Notes under the pieces: model-generated
The model's input: only the letters and a program-made list of their open reading frames with translations
Told to the model about the DNA's origin: nothing
The model's database searches: none
Origin: Kiritimatiellia bacterium
Lineage (GTDB): Bacteria > Verrucomicrobiota > Kiritimatiellia > RFP12 > UBA1067
NCBI GenBank assembly: GCA_017450695.1
Contig: JAFSTA010000084.1
Location: 34,474-98,473, forward strand
DNA: 64,000 nt
Reading direction: 5' to 3'
In this document: positions 3,149-56,747 of the stretch, piece after piece
How the letters are laid out: every line of letters begins with the position of its first letter
Numbering within the stretch: the stretch's first letter is position 1
Position numbers and translations under genes: made by a program

Positions 3149-3540
3149 ATCCGGTTGGGTGGTTAGGTGTTGTGTCGTTCCCGCGCAAGCGCGGGCAGAG
3201 CGCATGCTTATGGGTTGGCGGGCAAGGAAATGCGGTCGCGAGGGAATGCGCCCCGATTCGGGCAACGAGGACGTTACCCCTCCCATTCGATGTGTACCCT
3301 GTGTTCTCCGCGCCCCTGCGTGAAACAAACTCGCCCGCATGTGCATTTCCATGCCGGTATGAGCGGATGGATGGACTTCGTTCTGTTTTCACGCCGAATG
3401 CAGTTTTGTCTTGCCCTACCCGTTTTTTTTCGCTATTGTCATCGCGTAAGATGTTTTGGGGGTGGATGCATTCGCCAGGGTCGGAGCAAGAGACAAGCTC
3501 CGGGCGGATCGTGTCGGAACCTCCTGATCGAGGAGTCAGA

Positions 3541-11600: not shown

Positions 11601-13478
11601 TACACGCAACCGTTCACGGTTTTGACCGAGACGCTGGTTCAGGCGCGCGCCCTTTCGGGCACGACTTGGAGTGCCTTGTCGGAATACACCGTGGAAGTGG
11701 CGCAAGACCATGCTGTCTTCCTTTTGCCCGACGAGGGAAATTGGGACAAGAACGCAAACTGGAGTACGGGAACCTACCCCAACGGTGCGGGTGTTTGGGC
11801 TGAGATTCCCGCGCCGACCACGCTTGATTCGGAAGGAAAGAGAAATGTCCGAATCAACAAGTCCGCCATCACGGTTGGGCGGCTCGACCTCTTCAACGGC
11901 TCGGCGACCAACCGCGTCTGCAACAAGAAGGACGCCGCTGCCGGAACCACGCTGACATTCAACGGCGGAGATGCCCCCGCCTTGGTCACTGTACCAAACA
12001 ATGAAAGCGGCATGGCTGTCATCGAGGTGAATTACGGCGTCATCTTGGCAAACGAGCTACGCCTTGTGGTCAGTAACCTGACGGGAAATGCCGAGTACGG
12101 CGCACTCCGTCTGCAACAGGCGTGGAGCGGTCCGGGCGGTCTCACGAAGGAGGGACCCGGCGTCTGCTCCGTCACCGGCGGAGACAAAACCTATACCGGC
12201 GACACGCGGATTCGCGAGGGTGTGATGACGTTCAGCGCGAAATCCATCCCGACAGCCACGCGCTCCTTCACGGTCGAGCCGGGTGGTCAGCTTCGCCTGA
12301 ACCCAGGAAACGCGACCTACCGTTTTCCCTGTTCGCTGTCGATCAGCGGATACGGGCGTGATCCCGCACTGGGCGCCGGTCTGGATTCGGAGGGAGCCTT
12401 GCGTCTTTCTTCGAAAGATTCCTCCGATTCCATCGTCGGCATTGAAACGCCCGTACTGCTCACCGGAAATGCGGGTATCCACGTCTCTGGCGTCTGCAGC
12501 TCCATGACACTTGCGCAGGGTGTTCGTGGAACGAACGAACTGAGGAAGACGGGAGAAGGAACGCTCACGCTCGCCGGCACCATCGATCTCGGCGACGGTG
12601 CGGCGACAGTTGCCGACGGAGTGCTCGCCTGCTCTGGAACCGGTTCGGTCGCCTCCGTTACCGGTACTGGCACGGTTGCCTGTCTCGCCGGACAGATTTC
12701 GGTACACACGTTCGACAGCCACCTCCGTTTCGCCGCCCGCCTTGTGAATAGCGGTGCGGAAAACGCGACCGGAAACGGCTTCATCTTCCTTTCCGATCCG
12801 ACTTCCCTTCCGCATGAAATCGACGTGTATCTGTCAGATGCGGATGACTTGACAGGTGTGTATTACGGAGGACTCTGCGTACCGCTCCATTCGCAACTTG
12901 CCTCCCGGCTTGCAACAATCCAGACGCACGTCTATGTGCCGGACGTCTCCGGCGGACAACGCTTCGATGGCACCACATGGACAGCCGTCCCCGCCGTCAT
13001 CGCAGCAGAACCGGTTGCCGTCACCCTGAACGGAACCAACTGTCAGGCACGGGTACTCACCGTGACCCGCAATCCGGCTTCGGCAACTTCGTTCTCTTAC
13101 ACGCAATGGAAAGAAACCGTCTTTACACCCGCGCAGAATCAGGATGAACAGATCTCCGGTCCGCTGGTGGAGACGGGAAAAGTTCCGAATCTGTTCCGCT
13201 ATGCGTTCGGTATGACGCTAGAAGACCTGCCCGCAGACTTCTATCCGCGGTTGGAGATTACGGGCACGACTCGCCTGTACCGCTGGCGAATCAACCCGAC
13301 ACGCGACGACCTCCGTTATCTCGTCGAGGCTTCCACCCGCGTCGAGAACTGGAACGATGCCGAATGCCTCTTCGATTCAGACCGACAGATTCCCGAAACA
13401 GAGGATGGCTGGGCGACTTTGACTGATACGCGCAACCTTCCCCAGCGCTTCTACCGCCTCAAAGTATTCCTCAAGTGA
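8604..13478 (+). CDS. Giant secreted CotH-kinase-family protein with lamin-tail (LTD), LamG/concanavalin-like, chitobiase-C/Fn3-like domains and C-terminal autotransporter-type beta-strand repeats
   Basis: Signal peptide MKTHSSFLPFFVWSVVVFPFLASA. LTD: IVINEVQSSND...SDWVELYNTGTTNVDLSGWGVSDK. CotH core: HVHLFINGRYWGIYNVAERID. LamG-like WMNLAAITD...YFDGSIAEVVILNRALTATEWERL. Repeats such as LRKTGEGTLTLAGTIDLGDG (TIGR02601-like). Confidence 0.8.
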   Translation: MKTHSSFLPFFVWSVVVFPFLASATIVINEVQSSNDSTCRDEYGMSSDWVELYNTGTTNVDLSGWGVSDKTSKPFKWIFPSGATIAAQSHLRLFASGRDVVESQEVEGIDPSTFSSNLVLWLSADDFSSTANGTSVTNWYDRSGYGNHATQCLARAPSVQLQAVNGHAALSFKRSSKQHFLLPKAFHGLSSLSNSTIMVACKWNGAVTSGIFGQWTSGTSTQNAHFEIQSGGTLRWRVANSDLKVNAAVTSGTWMNLAAITDCDRETPMLSLVKDGQLLQSLEKSIGQQNFSIADLIYLGDSCEASDSSSGRYFDGSIAEVVILNRALTATEWERLSQYFIDKYGADIRTNYHLSFKLGAEGETLTVTQPDGTLSDQVTFGAIPCDASYGRSPSGGEDFAWFAEPTPGAANSETAYDAPLAPVQFSVERGLYEEPISLTLSHPDPEAAIFYTLDYSEPSVSNGTRYAGETIAISHTTVVRAYADKPGTLPYRSIQTHSYIFLSDVPQQTDIPAGCPSVWTSGGSTPASYGISTQVVATAEDVINLTNALRQLPILSLSLAAEKVFGSSAGVYSHAADSSLEEAVSAEWLTNGVGFVQTDAGLKAQGAASRNFSSTPKKPLRLCFRGRYGAGKLKTPVLQDIGYSCDEFNTLVLRAEYNNSWVHREAPQRLRGSNVRDQWMRDTQGKMSGYQSHGNHVHLFINGRYWGIYNVAERIDASLAATLFGGDKEEYDGLAYDGDTGSIKARDGDTTSWNALMTLLSADLTLRENYQAVAQRVDLPAFADYMLLNFFGGNQDWPHNNFAMVCSRLEGGKFYFCCWDVERTLEGVSDNRLSASFSIGPKKLHDRLLTSPEYKMLFADRAHKHLFNGGALTVESMIPRYRALADKLEPAIFAEAARWGSYRLENGSASQGYGLEEWIAERDRVLNTYLPQRPAQFITQLQTAGLYPTVEAPEISESANGFQKQVTISIPAGTQVYYTLDGTDPRVAFSGGTSATALAYTQPFTVLTETLVQARALSGTTWSALSEYTVEVAQDHAVFLLPDEGNWDKNANWSTGTYPNGAGVWAEIPAPTTLDSEGKRNVRINKSAITVGRLDLFNGSATNRVCNKKDAAAGTTLTFNGGDAPALVTVPNNESGMAVIEVNYGVILANELRLVVSNLTGNAEYGALRLQQAWSGPGGLTKEGPGVCSVTGGDKTYTGDTRIREGVMTFSAKSIPTATRSFTVEPGGQLRLNPGNATYRFPCSLSISGYGRDPALGAGLDSEGALRLSSKDSSDSIVGIETPVLLTGNAGIHVSGVCSSMTLAQGVRGTNELRKTGEGTLTLAGTIDLGDGAATVADGVLACSGTGSVASVTGTGTVACLAGQISVHTFDSHLRFAARLVNSGAENATGNGFIFLSDPTSLPHEIDVYLSDADDLTGVYYGGLCVPLHSQLASRLATIQTHVYVPDVSGGQRFDGTTWTAVPAVIAAEPVAVTLNGTNCQARVLTVTRNPASATSFSYTQWKETVFTPAQNQDEQISGPLVETGKVPNLFRYAFGMTLEDLPADFYPRLEITGTTRLYRWRINPTRDDLRYLVEASTRVENWNDAECLFDSDRQIPETEDGWATLTDTRNLPQRFYRLKVFLK

Positions 13479-43536: not shown

Positions 43537-45291
43537 CTAGTCCTTCAAAGCCCGGAGAATCCGGTGACGAATCATGCGGCGAAGGCAGAAGAACGCCAAA
43601 ACCAGCAACGTGATGCAGAGGCAGAAAAGGACGAGCGAACCGATCGCCGTCACGCCGCCGGCCGCAAAACCTTCCTTCATCCACTTGTTCAGATTGGCGA
43701 GGAACAACTCGAAGACCGCCGTGCCGCTGGTCACCAGCATGAAGACCATCGGCAACAGGCAGATCCAGAAGTTCCGGTGGTTCTTCAGGAGCCAGAGCGA
43801 AGCGGTCAATAACGTCAGCGCCGCCAGCATCTGGTTGGCGGACGCGAACATCGTCCACAGGTTCCCCGCCATCGACGGATTGAGCACCAGCAGGTAAAAA
43901 CCGATGGCGATCACCACGCCCGTCGCGAAGTACATGTTCTTGTTCAGACGAACCAGCAGACCGCTCTTCTCCGTCTTCTCTTTCTGGGCCGCATCGGTCG
44001 TAGAGGCTGTGGACCAAATTTCCTGCCAGACGAACCGCGCCAGACGGGTACAGGCGTCAACGGAGGTCATCAGGAAGGCCGCCACCGCCAACAGCATGAA
44101 ACTCTGCGCCGTGTTTTCGGGAATGCCGAGTTTCCCGCAGAACGAAGCGAGTCCCTTGGCGAAGAGGACAACCGGCTTGCCCTCGGCAAGTCCCGCCATC
44201 AGCTGATCCTGCGAAAGCCACGCCACGGAGATCAACGCGAGGAGCGCGACGACACCTTCCAGCAACATGCAGCCGTACCCGACGGGACGGATATGCGCTT
44301 CGGAATCCAGTTGCTTGGAAGTCGTGCCGCTCGCCACCAGCGCATGGAATCCGGAACACGCGCCGCACGCGACGGTCACGAACAACAGCGGGAACAGGTT
44401 CTGCGTCACGCCCTTCGCGTTCACGACGGAGACACCCGAAAACGCATGGATGTGGAAGGTCGGACAGACGATCAGGACACCGACAAGCCCCAGCGCGAGC
44501 ATCGCGTAGAGCAGGTAGCTGTTCAAGTAGTCGCGGGGCTGGAGCAACAGCCAGACCGGCAGCGTCGAGGCGACAAAGCAATACACGAAGAGGATCATCA
44601 CCCATATGTTCTTGCTGACTTCAGGCGTGACACCGAAGAGCTGGGTCAGATCGCACGGGAAGATCACACCGATCCACACCAGGAAGAAGAGCAACGGCAC
44701 GAAGACGAAACTCGCCGCGAAGACATTCCAGCGGAACTTATAGACACAGATGCCGAAAAGTGCGGCCTCGAAAATTCCAAGCAGCGATGAAGTCGCGACT
44801 TCGGGATTGGAGACGAACGCGTCGGCGACCTGCCCCGTGAAGACCGCCATCACCAACACCAGTGCCGCGAAACAGAACATGAGGAAGATCATCTTGCCGG
44901 GACGCCCCAGCACCTCCTCGATCACAGAACCGATCGATTTTCCCTGATGACGAACCGAGAGGAAGAGCGTCACCATGTCATGCATCGCGCCGATGAAAAT
45001 ACACCCCAGCACGATCCAGAGAACGACAGCAGCCCATCCGAACTGCGCCGCCAGCACAGGACCGATGATCGGTCCGGCACCCGCAATCGCGGCGAAATGA
45101 TGACCGAACAGCACCATCGGGTGCGCCGGCACATAGTCGATCCCGTCCCGCATCGCGTGGGCGGGCGTCGGAATTTTCGGATCCACGCCCAGTTTCCTCG
45201 CGACGAAACTGGAATAAAAAAAGAAAGCCAACAGAAAACACGCACAACCAAGCAGCAACAACACAGCACCGTTCATTTTCCAAATCTCCAT
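43537..45291 (-). CDS. cstA: Carbon starvation protein A (peptide/pyruvate transporter family)
   Basis: N-terminal LGVDPKIPTPAHAMRDGIDYVPAHPMVLFGHHFAAIAGAGPIIGPVLAAQFGW is the conserved CstA signature. 584 aa polytopic membrane protein. Confidence 0.85.
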   Translation of the reverse strand: MEIWKMNGAVLLLLGCACFLLAFFFYSSFVARKLGVDPKIPTPAHAMRDGIDYVPAHPMVLFGHHFAAIAGAGPIIGPVLAAQFGWAAVVLWIVLGCIFIGAMHDMVTLFLSVRHQGKSIGSVIEEVLGRPGKMIFLMFCFAALVLVMAVFTGQVADAFVSNPEVATSSLLGIFEAALFGICVYKFRWNVFAASFVFVPLLFFLVWIGVIFPCDLTQLFGVTPEVSKNIWVMILFVYCFVASTLPVWLLLQPRDYLNSYLLYAMLALGLVGVLIVCPTFHIHAFSGVSVVNAKGVTQNLFPLLFVTVACGACSGFHALVASGTTSKQLDSEAHIRPVGYGCMLLEGVVALLALISVAWLSQDQLMAGLAEGKPVVLFAKGLASFCGKLGIPENTAQSFMLLAVAAFLMTSVDACTRLARFVWQEIWSTASTTDAAQKEKTEKSGLLVRLNKNMYFATGVVIAIGFYLLVLNPSMAGNLWTMFASANQMLAALTLLTASLWLLKNHRNFWICLLPMVFMLVTSGTAVFELFLANLNKWMKEGFAAGGVTAIGSLVLFCLCITLLVLAFFCLRRMIRHRILRALKD

Positions 45292-45372
45292 TCCCTGCCT
45301 TGAGCGGCAAGCGCAAGAATTTAGCTTACTCTTTTATTCCTTCGGTGTCAATTGCATTCGCCCGGCGGTGGG

Positions 45373-45420
45373 TAATCGGTCAGTGAGCGGGGCTGGCGCC
45401 CGCGCTCGCTGACCGATTAC
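45373..45420. promoter_or_regulatory. 18-bp-arm inverted repeat (GTAATCGGTCAGTGAGCG-N12-CGCTCGCTGACCGATTAC, one mismatch) ~80 bp upstream of the cstA start
   Basis: Read directly. It lies in the divergent region between cstA (-) and the Type III mod gene (+). Confidence 0.4.
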
Positions 45421-45799
45421 AAGTTGTGCTTGAAAAGACAACAGCTTCTGCTATGATAAGAGCGTTCTTTGGCGGTTGACCGCCGAGGAAAGACAAAATC
45501 CGGAAACTGACCGGGGTCGTCAAGCGACGTATGGAAGCCGACACCCCTCTCCACCTCCGGAGGTTAAGATTGTGGCATCAACGCTACATCGTCGTTCAGC
45601 AGAAATACGACCAATGTTTTTAATCCAGAACGACGTGTAAGTGATGATGCGTCCGTAAGGGCGCATTATCTTTATATGTATTCTGGATGGGCCTTTGGTC
45701 GGGCTTCTGCTGAGTGCATGAAAGGAAATGCGCTCTTTTTATGTATGTGACCAGGGGGGGTCCACGGCATTCGCAAGCGCACTATGCTGGAGGGGCGGG

Positions 45800-47871
45800 A
45801 TGGTTGCCGCCGGAATGGACATGGCGCAAAAAAGTTTGATCGGCGAACTGCCGAAGATTCTGGAAGAGGGTAAACGCGAGGCAGGAAGAATTCTGGAGCG
45901 ACTCTCGGACAACGTGAAAGTCGGACTTCAAACAAACGAGCTGGTACTCCCCGCGAAAGATGTGGACGGTCTCTTCAAGGGGCAGATGCCGACACTGGGT
46001 TCTTCGACAGGATTTACAGGATTAACAGGATTTGAGGCGGCCTCCCCTATGCCCGAAAATCCTGTCAAGAACAGTCCCTGGATCAACCGACTCATCTACG
46101 GAGACAACCTCCTCGTGATCCAGGCGTTGCTGGCGGGTGATGAAAAGACAAGTCTCCCTTCCTTGCGCGGCAAGGTCGATCTCGTCTATATCGATCCGCC
46201 CTTCGACTCCAAGGCCGACTACCGCACGAAAATCCACTTGCCCGGCACGGACATCTCGCAGAAACCGACTGTCATCGAGCAGTTCGCCTACTCCGACACG
46301 TGGAAGGACGGAACGGCAAGCTACCTCCGCATGATCTGCCCGCGCCTCATCCTCCTCCAGGAACTCCTCGCCGACACTGGATCCATCTACGTTCACCTCG
46401 ACTGGCACGTCGGCCACTACGTCAAAATCCTGATGGATGAGATTTTCGGGAAGGAGAATTTCAGGAACGAGATAGTGTGGTATTACAATAATAAAATGAG
46501 TGGTGCGGTTGTGAGTCATGATTTTGTATGTGAGCATGACACATTGTTTTTCTACTGCAAAACAAAGCAAAACCATTTTAATGAAATAAGGGAAGATAGG
46601 GATATACCAGTGAAACAAAGCAAGCGGGTGAAGATCGACGGGAAAAATATGAGGGCAAGAGATGCTGATGGAAACATGATATATGAAATCTCATTTGACA
46701 AGAAAGTCAAAGATGTTTGGACTATTCCATATATCGCATCAACCTCTAAAGAGCGTGTGGACTATACCACCCAGAAACCCGAGGCCTTGTTGGAGCGCAT
46801 CATCAAGGCATCATCGAACGAGGGAGATTTGGTGCTGGATGTCTTCGCGGGGAGCGGGACGACAGCGGCGGTGGCGGAACGGCTGGGGCGACGTTGGATT
46901 TCGGTGGATATCGGGAAGCCGTCGGCGTTGATCCAGCGAAAACGCTTCATCGACAATGAGGTGAAGCCATTCCTCTACCAGTCGGTCGGCGACTACCAGA
47001 AGGAGGCCTTCGGTGCATCGCGGCTGTTCCGTCGGATCGGCGACTTGTGTGAGGTCGTACTGAAACTCTACGGCGCGGAACCGTTTCCGGTGGAAAACTG
47101 CCCGACGCGCAACGCGGGGCAGATTCGCGAGTCGCGGACGCTCGTCCTGGTCGATAGCCCGAACAAACTCACGAATGCGGCAAGCGTGAAACGGGCGGCG
47201 GAAGCAAAGAACACGGCACTCGGCGGCGGCTGGTCGAAGGTGGTTCTCTTGGGCTGGAATTTCGCGTGGGACATTTCACAGGCAGCGCAGATGTACAAGG
47301 ACGTCGAGGTACTGGTGATTCCGCCAGATCTGATGGACGCGCTGAAAAAGCGCGGTTTTGCAGATCTCGCGGCAAACGGCAAGGTTCGTTTCTCCTCACT
47401 GCAGTATCTGTCGCTCAAGGATGTGCGGAGAGAGAGAGGATCGCATCTCACGCAGAGGCGCGGAGAGGTGGGGAATGCAAGGAAATTAACGGATTGGAGG
47501 TCTCGGCGGACTCTGCGCCTCAGCGTGAGGAAAATATGGAACGCATCATTGTCGAACTGGGCAACTACGTGCTGTTGTCACCGGACAACATTCCTTTAGA
47601 CGATAAGGACAAGGAGATCTTGGCGAAAATCGCGAAGGAAGACCCGCTGGCACTCATCGAATACTGGAGCGTCGATCCGGACTACAACGGCGAAACATTC
47701 CGCAGTCTCTGGCAGGACTACCGTGAGAACACGGGGAATGACGACGATCCCGACCATTGCGTATTCACGGCGGAGATTGTCGTGCCGAAAAAGCCGAAAG
47801 GTACTCGTGTCGTATGCGTAAAGGCTGTCGATGTCTTCGGCTTCGAGAGCGTGGCAACGGTGAGAGTGTAA
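45800..47871 (+). CDS. mod: Type III restriction-modification Mod subunit (beta-class N6-adenine/N4-cytosine DNA methyltransferase), frameshifted near 47427..47440
   Basis: Motif IV DPPF in [12 protein letters not shown]. AdoMet motif [15 protein letters not shown]. The reading frame switches from +2 (ORF 45728..47599) to +1 (ORF 47266..47871) at a (GA)5 run, ggAGAGAGAGAGga. The C-terminus continues in the other frame (..[20 protein letters not shown]). Central 46440..46760 is markedly AT-rich, a probable target-recognition domain. Confidence 0.7.
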
Positions 47872-47883
47872 GGAGAACTGGCA

Positions 47884-50830
47884 ATGGCGAAGAAAAGCAC
47901 GGCAATGAACACAGGACGGATTCCGTTGGAGTTCGCGAAACGAGTAAGCGAAGCAGCGGAGGCGGCATACGGAAACGGTTCGATGGCGCACGCGGTCTCA
48001 CCCGTCACGCGAGAACTGCTGAAATACTGGTTCGAGGAACCGTTCACGGATCGTCCGCTCAACTTCCACGAAGGACAGAAGCGGGCTATCCTGAACGCCA
48101 TCTACCTGCACGAGGTCATCGGCGCGGCGAACATGACGGATGCCTGGGCGAAAATCGGTCCAGAGCTACTGGAAACGGAGAACGGCGCGGTGATGGCGGA
48201 ACTCTCCAAAGACAAATACGCCTACCCGAAATACTGCGTGAAGATGGCAACGGGAACGGGGAAGACATGGGTAATGCATGCACTTCTGATCTGGCAGTAC
48301 CTGAACGCACGATATCCCGTCAAGGGGGCGGTGACGCCGTCCCCGTCGTTTGTGAAAAACTTCCTCTTCGTGGCACCGGGGCTGATCGTCTATGAGCGGC
48401 TGCTTGACGCCTTTTGCGGCAAGCGAATCGACGGCGGCGAGATGCGGGATTTCACGACGAGCGACATCAAAAGCTGCGAGTCACTTTTCGTGCCTCCGCA
48501 GTATCGTGATGCGCTGTACGCTTTCCTCCAAAACTCACTGGTACGCAAGGAGGATTTCGGTCGCAAAGTGACAGGTGACGGAACGTTGGCGGTCATGAAC
48601 TGGCATACGTTTCTGGGCGAGGAGGAAGGTTCGCCTTCCGAGGATTCGGGGGCGGAGTCCCCATCCGTTTGCACCGATGACGGCAAGGGAATTCTCGACG
48701 AGCTCCTTCCCGCGAAGCCGGGAATAGCGGCTGGTAACGCCCTGGAGTCGCTGGACGCCTCATTCCTGCGCGGCGGAAGACTTGATTTCCTAAAGGACTT
48801 GCCCGATCTGATGCTCGTAAACGACGAGGCGCACCATGTGCATGGAGGAACAAAAGACGAGGAAGAAGTCAAGTGGCAACAGGGAATCGACGCGTTGGCG
48901 AAAGGGAAACGGTTCATTCAGCTCGACTTCTCGGCGACACCATACGAACCATCCGGGAGCGGGCGCAACGCGCAACAAGCGCGAGGACTATTTTCCGCAC
49001 GTAATGGTCGATTACGACCTCCCCGCCGCAATCCGGGCGGGGCTTGTGAAGACCATCATCATCGACGAACGCAAGGAGTTGGCGAACGAGCTTGTCGATC
49101 TGGACTACAAAGCCGTCCGGGACGGGCGGCACGTAGTGGGACTGAGCGATGGACAACGGCTGATGTTACGGGCCGGGTTGGCAAAACTCCGGTATCTCGA
49201 AAAGGAGTTCGCATCGTTAGATGAAGCGAAGCGGCCGAAGATGATGGTGGTCTGCGAGGACACGGGCGTAACACCGCTCGTCTCCGATTTTCTGCGAGAG
49301 GAAGGACTTTCCGACGACGACATTCTGACGGTTGACAGTAACAGGCAGGGAGATGTCGGAGAGAAGGAATGGAACAAGATGAAGGGAAAACTCTTCGCGG
49401 TTGACAAGCGCGAAAAGCCACGCGTCATCATCTCCGTTCTCATGCTCCGTGAGGGATTCGATGTCAACAACATCTGCGTCATCGTGCCACTCCGAGCATC
49501 CAACGCGCAGATTCTGTTGGAGCAGACACTAGGACGCGGGCTACGCCTCATGTGGCGGGAACCGGAATACAGAGAAACCAAGGATAAGGCGAGGGATCAA
49601 TTAATCGTAGAAAAGGTCGAGCCTTGCGCGGTGTTAGACTTCCTTTACATCATCGAGCATCCGGCGTTCAAGGAATTCTACGACAATCTCGTTGCACAGG
49701 GACTCGTTGGAACGCAGAAAACGAAAGACAGAGACGGTGGCGGGAAAGACGACCTCGTTCATTCCGTCCTCAAGGAAGACTACGAGAATTGGGACATCTT
49801 TTGGCCGCTGGTGCGGAGAGAAAGCGAGGAAATCCTATCTGATGAAGCCCTTCCCCAAGAAGGCTTGGAACCTTTCACACTCTATCCGCTGTCGCGGTTA
49901 CGTGAAATCTTCGCGAGACCGGGCGAGGTATTCGTGGGGAAAGAACTACTTGTCCGGACGACATTCGGCGAGTACCGGGTTCATGCGAATCTCTTCAATG
50001 CCACATGCTACAACGAGTACATTCAAGGCATCGTCGATTCGATTTCTCGCCGATTCATGCGTATTGCAGGAAAGCAGACAAGTGCAATGCCCGCCTTGCA
50101 GATACACTTAGCAAAGATTGCCGCGGTGGTGGACAGGTTCATTCGGGAACGGCTGTTCAATGAGCCGTTCGACCCATTTAGCGGAAATGACTGGAAGATT
50201 CTCCTCTGTCGCAATGGAACCATCACCAACCATATCGTCAAGCAGGTGGGTGAACTGGTTTATTGGATTGAAAACAAAACGCTCAAGACTCAAGCAGATG
50301 TCGATCGACTTTGGTTCTCCAGCGTGCGCGACTTCGTCGTTCGGAAAGGTGCGTCGCTTGAACTGACGAAAACGATCTACACGCGCACCGGTTATCCGAC
50401 GAAGGGGGGCGGGCTGGAGAAGGATTTTATGGAGTTCATCGACCGCGACGGCGGAGTGGAGAGGTTCGTCAAAGTCAACGAGGCAAAACACATCTTCGCA
50501 CGGATTGCCTATCTTCGCACAGATGGACTGATGGGCGAGTACATTCCCGATTTCCTTGTCGTGACGGAAAAACACGTCTGGCTGGTGGAAACAAAGGCTG
50601 AAAAGGACAAGGATGATGGAAACGTGCAGGCAAAGCGAAACGCAACAGTACAGTGGTGCAAGGGTATCAATGCTCTGGAGAAAGAAGATCGAATGAACCG
50701 AACATGGAGTTATCTGCTTCTGACGGACAAGGATTTCTATGCCTATCAAGATGGAAATGCCACATTCCATGATTTGTGCAGGTTTTCTGAAGTCACGGAG
50801 TCGGGGTTAAAGGGCGAGTTTACGTTCTGA
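47884..50830 (+). CDS. res: Type III restriction-modification Res subunit (SF2 helicase/endonuclease), frameshifted near 48945..48985
   Basis: Walker A ATGTGKTWV, DEAH box LMLVNDEAHHV, motif III FSATP in frame +1 (ORF 47884..49224). The rest (KREDYFPHVMVDYDLPAAIRAGLVKT ... to 50830) is in frame +2 (ORF 48836..50830). Starts 10 nt after the mod stop. Confidence 0.7.
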
Positions 50831-51002
50831 TTCACGAAATCCACTTCCCCGTTGATGATCTAACTCTGTGATAATCTCGAAACCGCAGATTACAGAGTGC
50901 TTGGCGCTTCGCGCCAGCTGAAAAGCTGAGAAGCGAAAGGAGGGCAATAGGATTACCTCGCGTAAAGGCGTCGAGTCGCCCAATCGAGAAGAGAGAACGC
51001 GC

Positions 51003-51050
51003 GGATTAGGTCGATTTAAAGCCTCCGAAGGAGGCGATTTAACCATTTCA
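51003..51050. repeat. Intergenic repeat family R4 (gatttaaaGCCTCCgaaGGAGGCgattNaaccatttca), copy a
   Basis: Second copy at 57234..57282 with the same GCCTCC-gaa-GGAGGC hairpin. Confidence 0.7.
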
Positions 51051-51259
51051 CCTAAGTTCCTCAGTTGGACACTTTGAAATGAATCATGCTGCTTTGGATT
51101 TTTCAGACTTTCACCATTTGGATGAATCGTTTTTCTGTGTGTGCGGGGGGGCGAAAAGCCCTGTTTACGGTACTTTCTCTGTGTACTCTGCGCACTCAGC
51201 GGCTCTGCGTGAGAACCCAAACGAGGAATCGAGGTTTAATCCGTTCTTGTGCCAAGTCC

Positions 51260-53347
51260 TCATGCGTTCACGCTTGTTCCGAAGAGAAGCAAGCCGAGTG
51301 AGGAGACGGTCGCTTCTTTCGCGATGGCGTCGGGTTCCCTCCCCGCCTTTCGCAATGCGGTCGCTGTCGGGTTTCCGAGAACGACAACCTTCTTTCCGGT
51401 CAACCGATCCGCCCCGAATTGGTTCAGGAAGGATTCGACTGCCGAAGCGCTTGCGAAAAATACGGCATCGAATCTCGGCAGGTTGTCATACCGAACCTCT
51501 TCGTTGCGATAGAGGATGCAGTCGGTAACGGTTGCGCCTCGTTCACGCAGTGCGCCCGCCACGCTCTCCCCCGCCTTCTCGGAACGGAAACGTAAAATCC
51601 GCTGTCCGTTCCAATAGCCGTCTGACAATGTGGCGATGAGTCCTTCCGCGCTAAAGGATTCCTTCGGCATCCAGTCGGCGTGCAAGCCCGCCGTTTCCAG
51701 TTCCGACGCGCATCCGGGACCACAAACTATCAATTTCGGAACCTGGCGCAGATCGAACGATTCGGATCGCAACAGTTCCAGAAAGATCCGTACCGCGCTT
51801 GGGGAAGTGAGCACAACCCAGTCGTACGAATCCAGCGAACGGATCTCCTCACGCGCACGGGATTCGGCCCGGAGACGGATCAACGGACGCGCAAGCGGGA
51901 CGCCTCCCAGATCGCGTACCGAAAGTTCGGCTTTGGGCAGAATGGATTCGCTACAGGTCAACAGCACGCGCATCCCGTCCAGACCACCCGCTGCGCTTCG
52001 ATATCCGCCCGCGGCTGGAGAACCGATCAGGATCAGTCCCGGAGCCTCTTCCCCTTCACTCGGATGCAAGGTAGCCAAAGTTCCGCGAACGATTTTCTCC
52101 TCCTCGCCGCCTGCCTGATACACGATGGCGGCAGGTGTCTCCGGTGACCACCCCTCACCGATCAGACGACGCGCGACGTCCTCCGCGAGCTTGACGGACA
52201 TGAAGAGAACGAGCGGGAAACGACTCCGTTCCTCGATCCCGACATCCGCATTCCCGCCCCCTTCCGCACGAGGCGTCATCACGGTGAACCCGCGTGACTC
52301 GCCGCGTTTGGTCAAGAGCATCCCCGTGCCGGTCGTGGCCGCAACCAGCGCGCTGACACCGGGAAGCACACGATACGGGATCTGTAATTCATCGAGCCTG
52401 CCGATCTCTTCGGACAAACGCCCGAAGAGGCCGGGATCGCCGCCCTTCAACCGAACGACGCGAAGCCCCTGCCGCGCGTACTCCGCGATCAGCTCCGTAA
52501 TCTCGGACTGCGGCATCGAATGTCCCCCGCAACGCTTCCCCACAAAGACTGCCTGTGCCTGCGGCGGCAACTCGCGCAACAACCGTTCGTCCATCAGCTG
52601 GTCGTACAGGCAGACATCCGCCTGACGCAGCTCTTTCAGTCCGTCCCATGTGATCAGTCCGGCGGAACCGACCCCCGCGCCAACGAAACGAACCGCCTTG
52701 ACGAAGCAAGAACGAAGCCGCATCCATTCCGGGTTCCCTTTGCGGAAGGTGACTGCCAACCGGCCTTGCGCCAGAGGCGTCGGCAACCGGTCAAGCGGAA
52801 TCCATTCTGTGATGCGCTCGGAAAGCCCCAGTCGTTTCAGTGCGGCGCCCGCCATAATCACGACATCGAAATCCCCCGCGTCGAGTTGTGCAATCCGAGA
52901 AGGAATGCTGCCGCGAATGGGACGGATCACGGCATCGGGGAACTCGGAATTGACGTATGCTTCCCGGCGGTCGCTGCTAACGCCGATGACCGGGCGCGAC
53001 AACGAGGCGCGGGATTCCCCGGAACGCAGCACAAGGCAATCGCGCGCGTCCTCGTACCAAGGGAGCCAGAACCAATCAAGCCGCGGATTCGGCAACGGGT
53101 AGGAAAGGTCCTTCGCGCTGTGGACGGCAAGGTCGATCATACCTGATAAAACCGCCTCGTCCAAATCACGCGAAAAGAAATCGGCCGGGGCGGTACGGAG
53201 ACTGCTCGCCAAATCACGGTCCCCCGGCGAAGAGAACGGGATCGTTTGGAAAGAGAGGAACGGAAAGAGACCGATGATGCGGTTCAAGGCATCTTGCGTC
53301 TGCGCCAGAGACAACGCGCTTCCGCGCGTGCCGACTTTCCACTGCAT
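51260..53347 (-). CDS. Tetrapyrrole triple fusion: HemC-like (hydroxymethylbilane synthase domains 1-2 only) + uroporphyrinogen-III C-methyltransferase (CobA/SUMT) + uroporphyrinogen-III synthase (HemD)
   Basis: N-terminal WKVGTRGSALSLAQT...AVHSAKDL...VIMAGAALKRLGL...PLAQGRLAV (HemC domains 1-2; the domain-3 cofactor Cys region is absent). Middle VRFVGAGVGSAGLITWDGL...VVRLKGGDPGLFGR...LPGVSA (SUMT). C-terminal DWVVLTSPSAVR...AVFFASASAVE (HemD). Confidence 0.75.
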   Translation of the reverse strand: MQWKVGTRGSALSLAQTQDALNRIIGLFPFLSFQTIPFSSPGDRDLASSLRTAPADFFSRDLDEAVLSGMIDLAVHSAKDLSYPLPNPRLDWFWLPWYEDARDCLVLRSGESRASLSRPVIGVSSDRREAYVNSEFPDAVIRPIRGSIPSRIAQLDAGDFDVVIMAGAALKRLGLSERITEWIPLDRLPTPLAQGRLAVTFRKGNPEWMRLRSCFVKAVRFVGAGVGSAGLITWDGLKELRQADVCLYDQLMDERLLRELPPQAQAVFVGKRCGGHSMPQSEITELIAEYARQGLRVVRLKGGDPGLFGRLSEEIGRLDELQIPYRVLPGVSALVAATTGTGMLLTKRGESRGFTVMTPRAEGGGNADVGIEERSRFPLVLFMSVKLAEDVARRLIGEGWSPETPAAIVYQAGGEEEKIVRGTLATLHPSEGEEAPGLILIGSPAAGGYRSAAGGLDGMRVLLTCSESILPKAELSVRDLGGVPLARPLIRLRAESRAREEIRSLDSYDWVVLTSPSAVRIFLELLRSESFDLRQVPKLIVCGPGCASELETAGLHADWMPKESFSAEGLIATLSDGYWNGQRILRFRSEKAGESVAGALRERGATVTDCILYRNEEVRYDNLPRFDAVFFASASAVESFLNQFGADRLTGKKVVVLGNPTATALRKAGREPDAIAKEATVSSLGLLLFGTSVNA

Positions 53348-56598: not shown

Positions 56599-56747
56599 GA
56601 TACGCACGATCCACCGTACGAAGCGGCACCGGGACTCGTCTCATATCCCGCATGTCGCTTGTCCTTTGCCTCACACGGAGGCGCGAAGAATGGGAGGGGC
56701 AACGTCCTCGTTCCCCGAATTGGGATGGTCACGTTCGCCTCTCCTCC

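Follow-up and report, generated by a model that had tools for sequence, protein, structure and literature searches.

Restriction-modification (R-M) systems belonging to Type III and of the EcoP15I and EcoP1I kind (Mod2Res) are encoded by a mod gene placed a short gap upstream of res. In the beta-class Mod subunit, motif IV (DPPF) is followed by the target-recognition domain (TRD) and then by motif I (FxGxG), and the Res subunit joins the motifs of a superfamily 2 (SF2) helicase to a C-terminal PD-ExK nuclease. A mod-res pair alike in all these respects is found on the + strand of a 64-kb stretch of DNA from contig JAFSTA010000084.1 (hereafter the window, meaning the whole stretch analyzed), which belongs to a Kiritimatiellae bacterium of a ruminant gut metagenome. 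For the Der GTPase of this host, the named relatives bear the labels Kiritimatiellae, Kiritimatiellia, Kiritimatiellaeota or Verrucomicrobiota. The pair differs from EcoP15I and EcoP1I in that both genes are frameshifted and in that the locus represents a divergent subfamily. On the evidence given below, it is very probably a Type III system that has decayed, and not a working switch.

The working switches in question are the phasevarions, such as those of H. influenzae (modA), Neisseria (modA/B/D) and Mycoplasma (GA[n] mods), with which the window locus shares a simple sequence repeat (SSR) inside the mod open reading frame (ORF), a mosaic TRD and an inactivated res. A survey of Type III mod genes in REBASE applied SSR thresholds of at least 9 mononucleotides, at least 5 dinucleotide units and at least 3 longer units, and Mycoplasma mod genes are known to carry GA[n] tracts that comprise 5-25 units (PMC5909438). 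Loss of Res has been documented in Haemophilus phasevarions (PMC1976455). The window locus departs from these phasevarions in that its tract lies in a 3' loop and not in the 5' part of the gene, is common to no relative, and has a competing hairpin only 9 nt away. Hairpins of that sort have their own precedent, since short palindromic repeats inside protein-coding genes have been described as Rickettsia palindromic elements and similar repeats (PMC10969869). The best explanation of the locus, held with about even confidence, is that a Type III operon with a Bacteroidales-type TRD was recently inactivated by two independent ordinary mutations, the one in mod being the insertion of a hairpin that shifted the frame.

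In mod, an ORF beginning at the ATG at 45821 stays open in one frame to 47599, and the -1 frame, open from before 47266, reaches a TAA stop at 47869-47871; the coding sequence follows the first frame to approximately 47446 and the -1 frame from approximately 47530 to the stop. Comparison with homologues puts the change between the residues KDVR (~47426) and a block of 11 residues at 47536, and does not place it more finely than this loop-coding stretch of ~47426-47535. Apart from this single shift, mod is intact. The first-pass annotation of this DNA had assigned the frame change to a (GA)5 tract and had suggested phase variation by means of it. The tract is indeed there (it can equally be read as (AG)5 at 47429-47438) and codes for Arg-Arg-Glu-Arg in the upstream frame, but the frame change cannot be pinned to it within the zone just given.

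An 83-nt hairpin, overlooked in that annotation, starts 9 nt downstream of the tract. Its two 19-nt arms, CTCACGCAGAGGCGCGGAG at 47447-47465 and CTCTGCGCCTCAGCGTGAG at 47511-47529, are 89% complementary and enclose an interior of 45 nt, and the fold has a dG of -44.4 kcal/mol (z -5.2 against shuffled sequences). The mod loop, measured from the F of FSSLQYL to the D of NYVLLSPD, spans 197 nt in the window; of 74 homologues whose linker is intact, 73 have a loop of 36-41 codons. When the 83 nt are deleted, the loop shrinks to 114 nt, or 38 codons, the frame is restored and a Mod of 655 amino acids (aa) results. Right after the right arm, the sequence GAAAATATGGAACGC (ENMER) matches GAAAATAAGGAGCGG (ENKER) in the homologous locus L004, and the right boundary of the element was therefore set at the end of the arm.

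The arm motif matches five places in the window at up to three mismatches, as opposed to 0.01 expected. In public metagenome contigs, at least 120 stretches (L086-L205, for example L088:969-1043 and L097:5518-5589) contain two-armed inverted hairpins of the same family, with arms CTCACGCAGAGGCGC and GCGCCTCWGCGTGAG composed of GCAGAGG/GCAAAGG sub-repeats. Among the matches listed, the copies measure 65-94 nt with no bias toward multiples of three, have purine-rich 5' and pyrimidine-rich 3' flanks that give them a terminator-like look, and are mostly located upstream of genes. The possibility that copies commonly reside inside genes was considered and rejected: the long stop-free stretches that span copies begin at the element, so these copies lie upstream of genes. 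It was likewise rejected that the element had carried the GA tract in with it, because among the matches listed only one of 118 copies has even a (GA)3 upstream. With terminal inverted repeats bounding a hairpin unit and multiple dispersed copies, the element in the mod loop is a member of a dispersed family resembling repetitive extragenic palindromic (REP) sequences and miniature inverted-repeat transposable elements (MITE). An Rfam search of window positions 45000-52000 gave no match at E <= 1, and a literature search by arm sequence turned up nothing relevant, its one result being an unrelated zebrafish paper.

Other arm sites of the window, at ~3305-3324 (- strand), 51178-51216 (~51194) and 56670-56689, are solo or partial arms. 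Those at 51194, just downstream of res, and at 56670 are clearly intergenic, and the one at 3305, despite being overlapped by a long ORF call, probably falls between two genes; the sites at 3305 and 56670 have a longer sequence in common, beginning with GGGAGGGGYAACGTCCTCGTT.

The loop interrupted in the window mod has received hairpins in two relatives as well. Independent inserts of 84 nt (L003:9636-9833) and of 54 nt (L208:2592-2759; protein P0123) occur in the same mod loop, both in frame and read through. In an AlphaFold model of the L003 Mod, the insert appears as a disordered loop (residues 566-592, with a predicted local distance difference test score, pLDDT, below 50) between strands at 553-562 and 595-604. 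Rickettsia palindromic elements, Coxiella QMITE and intragenic ERIC/BOX repeats are alike in being short palindromes in surface loops of coding genes, which are translated when in frame, as the L003 and L208 inserts are. The present family differs from them in its unrelated arm sequence and in that most of its copies elsewhere are intergenic (among the matches listed), and the window mod copy differs further in being out of frame and destructive.

L208, a Kiritimatiellae-type locus with the same TRD type as the window, shows additional damage. Its TRD is interrupted at L208:1600-1800 by an element of ~125 nt with terminal inverted repeats GAGGTAGTTGCAAAACC and GGTTTTGCAATTACCTC, its mod reading frame changes again further downstream, and its res call starts late. 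In this R-M family, small palindromic elements and indels thus cause recurrent erosion.

A simple course of events would account for the mod lesion. The 83-nt element would have been inserted in a Mod loop between two beta strands near the C-terminus and, 83 being 2 mod 3, would throw the last 114 codons out of frame; these encode a domain conserved in every Mod family member. The (GA)5, 9 nt upstream of the hairpin, would be a bystander, and the locus, with its Res also split (see below), would neither restrict nor, probably, methylate. We infer that insertion and not GA slippage caused the mod shift, and insertion is favored because it is a single event, whereas slippage calls for two, together with a (GA)4 ancestor that was found in no homologue.

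That competing course is unlikely, although it is the strongest of the alternatives. It holds that a hairpin of 84 nt was first tolerated in frame and that the tract later slipped from (GA)4 to (GA)5, inactivating the gene in a fixed manner and not as part of a maintained switch. The inserts read through in the same loop of L003 and L208 indicate that such a state, with the frame kept, is viable. Across the element the downstream frame has no interruption, and with (GA)4 in place of (GA)5 a continuous Mod of 682 aa would be read, the element having no stop in that frame. Moreover, neither the window nor the family has a second such tract, this one lies within the shift zone, and GA runs are not a feature of the flanks of the hairpins. 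On the other side, the 83 nt defined by the inverted repeats alone already account for the shift. Such weight as is left among the readings of mod belongs to an indel elsewhere in the loop, an artefact or recoding.

Several points weigh against decay by hairpin insertion and are best taken together. No other (GA)5 occurs in the 64 kb or in the Mod family, and this one stands 9 nt from the hairpin and inside the shift zone; if it were a bystander, the chance of such a coincidence would be roughly 1% or less. The length of the loop is fitted equally well by an 84-nt insertion in frame with a subsequent slip from (GA)4 to (GA)5, the ancestral loop then having 37 codons (DVRRERIAENMER). The otherwise intact mod is also what a phase-variable gene in the OFF state would look like. 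The termini of the element are not fixed to the base: among the matches listed, 55% of copies have a T ahead of the left arm and 54% an A behind the right arm, and the copy in the window mod also has a T ahead of its left arm. At the mod insertion no target-site duplication was found, the 64 kb showed no link to a transposase, and the sequence examined yielded no other full-length copy having this interior. Finally, the inactivity of the truncated Mod is something that we infer. The only direct repeat in the flanks, GGAWCGCATC (9/10 matches, 100-nt spacing), was tried as a target-site duplication and rejected, being at chance level (by our estimate, ~0.7 such pairs are expected in 220 nt) and having a spacing, 100 = 1 mod 3, that does not agree with the frame shift.

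A true phasevarion would require that (GA)n act as a reversible switch of Mod, with the present copy OFF, (GA)4 or (GA)7 ON, and Res lost. With GA[5], the tract sits exactly at the survey minimum (PMC5909438), Res inactivation accompanies known phasevarions (PMC1976455), and a change of one or two GA units would restore the full ORF of a mod that carries no other lesion. The dead res is neutral in this matter, because loss of Res is known in real phasevarions (PMC1976455). Within the window, (GA)5 is the only dinucleotide tract of at least 5 units, and 1.25 such tracts are expected per 64 kb under a first-order Markov model; its presence is therefore unremarkable, and it is its position that is remarkable. 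Among the relatives, however, none of the 74 homologue Mod linkers has a GA run longer than three units, and the tract is absent from relatives with the same TRD type. The family has no SSR habit, a qualifying SSR being present in 4 of 81 homologue mods, each at another site of the gene and of another type. The tract is located ~78% of the way into mod, so that the OFF product would keep the catalytic core and the TRD, and the only other records of this mod allele have a tract region 100% identical to that of the window. The phase variation suggested in the first-pass annotation is thus unsupported, as the 83-nt hairpin explains the shift equally well or better; a phasevarion remains unproven, is improbable, and is less likely than decay.

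Three further repeats occur in the window. The only other repeat of the window that falls within the published length limits for phase variation is a (GAAC)3 at 12529-12540. A G7 homopolymer at 45754-45760, ~60 nt upstream of the mod start in the promoter or leader region, lies between alternative in-frame ATGs at 45728 and 45821 and is too short to be called a switch. At 46007-46033, three tandem in-frame copies of the 9-nt unit ACAGGATTT encode TGFTGLTGF within Mod's N-terminal variable region; the version in P0001 is shorter, and L004 carries a GCAGAGG-type repeat sequence in the same region.

The geometry of the mod loop also resembles a recoding cassette, with the tract ending at 47438, an 8-nt spacer and a strong hairpin starting at 47447. 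Programmed recoding would move ribosomes into the -1 frame, which is the direction needed, and would yield a full-length Mod. This is hardly credible, since hairpin-bearing relatives read straight through the loop in frame, res is broken by an unrelated lesion that lacks such a signal, and the hairpin is a generic dispersed repeat. One form that it could take would be a +2 re-pairing of tRNA-Arg on AGA-GAG-AGA. Canonical -1 programmed frameshifting was rejected because the sequence has no slippery heptamer of the form X XXY YYZ.

The second mutation of the decay reading is of a different kind. The first-pass annotation had reported a frameshift in res between FSATP and KREDYFPHV (48977-49003), and one is present at that place: an ORF from the ATG at 47884 extends to 49224 and is continued by the +1 frame, open from 48836 to 50830. 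Alignment with intact homologues (970-984 aa, end to end) narrows the change to the interval between ...SGSGRNA and REDYFPHV, where the DNA GGGCGCAACGCGCAACAAGCGC contains an exact tandem duplication of GCGCAAC (48963-48969 and 48970-48976). Removal of one copy gives DFSATPYEPSGSGRNKREDYFPHV, without any difference from the L003 Res, and the repaired Res has 979 aa and no stop. The corresponding stretch comprises exactly 24 residues in all 76 matched homologue segments. The lesion is a plain inactivating duplication, which cuts off motifs I-III of the Res helicase from the nuclease and from motifs IV-VI.

Neither lesion is confined to a single assembly, because a Logan contig (L001, from SRR12529377; 5,030 nt) and a European Nucleotide Archive (ENA) scaffold (L206; 22,088 nt) are 100% identical to the window over the locus. 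The first-pass annotation had allowed for a sequencing or assembly error, and these two identical records tell against it. The sequence is metagenome-derived, and errors arise easily at a short repeat or at a GC-rich hairpin, yet an artefact in one or both frameshifts is very improbable. A 7-bp duplication and the insertion of an 83-nt member of a repeat family are not typical sequencing errors.

In protein searches with the full-length Mod and with its C-terminal half, the one match to exceed 92% identity was P0017, whose contig is identical to the window, and no near-identical intact Mod allele occurs among 5.8 billion proteins. Metagenome contigs scanned for the left flank at the DNA level, with codon degeneracy allowed, yielded 0 matches. 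In the search for other strains, an exact CstA look-up found no match, and a HemCD look-up found only the window's own scaffold.

The central part of mod had been described as strikingly AT-rich and as a TRD acquired from a low-GC donor. The first statement is confirmed: windows of 200 bp at 46400-46700 have a GC content of 0.385-0.39, and the 300-bp window from 46451 (0.363) is the lowest of the entire 64 kb (mean 0.579, standard deviation 0.044). This AT-rich block coincides with a stretch, placed between motifs VIII and X, in which the homologues are hypervariable; this is the TRD. Outside it, the window Mod shares with the Kiritimatiellae and Verrucomicrobia alleles L002-L006 an identity of 92-97% in the N-terminal part and of 93-95% in the middle part; within the TRD, the window Mod cannot be aligned with four of these five and is 38% identical to the fifth. 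There it resembles the Bacteroidales alleles P0074 (= L082) and P0084 (= L085). Nucleotide identity over most of the TRD is 0.55-0.78 to L082 and L085 and 0.3-0.57 to the Kiritimatiellae alleles, and this ranking reverses outside the TRD.

The second statement held only in part. The TRD is mosaic, and the identities support an exchange with a low-GC lineage as the likely source, but no recent donor is identified because the nearest TRD relative is only ~70% identical in DNA. The dip in GC is itself family-wide (mean 0.117, above 0.05 in 54 of 56 loci). The window locus has the largest dip, 0.21, with a TRD GC content in the Bacteroidales range.

With respect to identity, the canonical Type III motifs of which the first-pass annotation had spoken are all present (DPPFDS, FAGSGTT, the SF2 helicase motifs, QTLGRGLR among them, and PD...ETK). 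Mod matches Pfam N6_N4_Mtase (E 1.6e-47), and the repaired 655-aa protein matches PADLOC MTase_III over residues 87-653 (E 1.7e-75). Res matches PADLOC REase_III (E 8e-25) and Pfam ResIII, its Helicase_C and RE_endonuc matches being weak, and reaches 196 bits against NCBIfam BPTD_3080, below the cut-off of 800. Among solved structures, Mod has sequence matches to the Mod subunits of EcoP15I, Mbo45V and H. pylori, and the AlphaFold model of a close intact homologue gave EcoP15I Mod (4ZCF) as its best Foldseek match; Res had no sequence match to any solved structure. Mod aligns end to end with homologues of 620-705 aa, of which thousands are intact and the best is 76% identical. The order mod then res on the same strand recurs in the homologous loci inspected. 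The two genes had been called adjacent with a gap of 10 nt; they are adjacent, but the spacer measures 12 nt and holds a GGAG before the res ATG at 47884. A functional Type III system has intact ORFs, and here each gene carries one frameshift; the pair is a Type III operon by descent, though a pseudogenised one. The coordinates of its features are collected below.

Features of the mod-res locus, in coordinates of the 64-kb window
Feature	Coordinates	Strand	Basis
mod pseudogene, Type III beta-class N6-adenine methyltransferase	45821..47871	+	ORFs, Pfam, PADLOC, end-to-end alignment
Mod motif IV DPPFDS	46193..46210	+	invariant in homologue alignments A1, A3
Target-recognition domain (TRD)	46469..46768	+	GC 0.373, homologue alignment
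Mod motif I FAGSGTT, S-adenosylmethionine (AdoMet) binding	46844..46864	+	alignment A1
Loop-coding segment, FSSLQYL to NYVLLSPD	47390..47586	+	homologue alignments
(GA)5 tract	47428..47437	+	direct reading of sequence
83-nt palindromic REP/MITE-like hairpin element	47447..47529	+	inverted arms, folding
res pseudogene, SF2 helicase with C-terminal PD-(D/E)xK nuclease	47884..50830	+	ORFs, Pfam, PADLOC
Res helicase motif I ATGTGKT	48247..48267	+	motif located
Res helicase motif II NDEAHH	48820-48837	+	motif located
Res helicase motif III FSATP	48928-48942	+	motif located
7-bp tandem duplication GCGCAAC-GCGCAAC, res frameshift lesion	48963..48976	+	sequence, homologue spacing
Res nuclease motif IPDFLV ... 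LVETKAEK	50543..50605	+	motif and weak Pfam RE_endonuc match

The two genes are neighbours elsewhere in the family, but in one homologous locus a stop-free stretch of ~270 codons (L002:3871-4680) separates mod from res.

The whole locus had also been proposed to be an acquired island inserted next to cstA, with a low-GC region upstream. The upstream stretch is only mildly low, with a GC content of 0.531 (45292-45820) against the window mean, and the intergenic flank on the other side of the locus has 0.49. The locus itself, at 0.541, is at the low end of the 5-kb windows (0.538-0.633). The R-M family occurs in unrelated contexts in other genomes, and the metagenomes in which relatives of the locus were found are largely those of ruminant guts. 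The der-cstA arrangement is kept in a relative with 89% DNA identity, and homology to this relative stops at window position 45362, 70 nt upstream of cstA. This break in synteny coincides exactly with the left border of the R-M region and hints at a variable or repeat-rich junction. The contigs of this relative (L209:1-175, two assemblies) end 175 nt past the break, and for that reason it was rejected as evidence of an empty site. Taken together, these comparisons lend weak support to an island that may have been acquired beside cstA.

If the decay reading is correct, the locus would be a routine example of the decay of an R-M system combined with TRD shuffling. It would also be a caution that an SSR in a frameshifted mod does not suffice to call a phasevarion; the SSR alone is insufficient here because a hairpin insertion 9 nt away explains the same shift. 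More ambitious is the proposal, which we consider improbable, that (GA)n is a young working switch in a Mod surface loop beside a translated palindromic insertion. If that were true, the cell would switch between a full-length Mod with a 27-residue hairpin-encoded loop and a C-terminally truncated Mod, the Kiritimatiellae, a phylum of non-pathogenic gut commensals, would have their first phasevarion, and a widespread uncatalogued hairpin family would repeatedly colonize one Type III Mod loop in the style of the Rickettsia palindromic elements.

The same Mod surface loop has been entered by palindromic repeats three independent times, twice in frame. These recurrent insertions, and the hairpin family, abundant in public metagenome contigs yet without a match in Rfam, may matter more than the locus itself.

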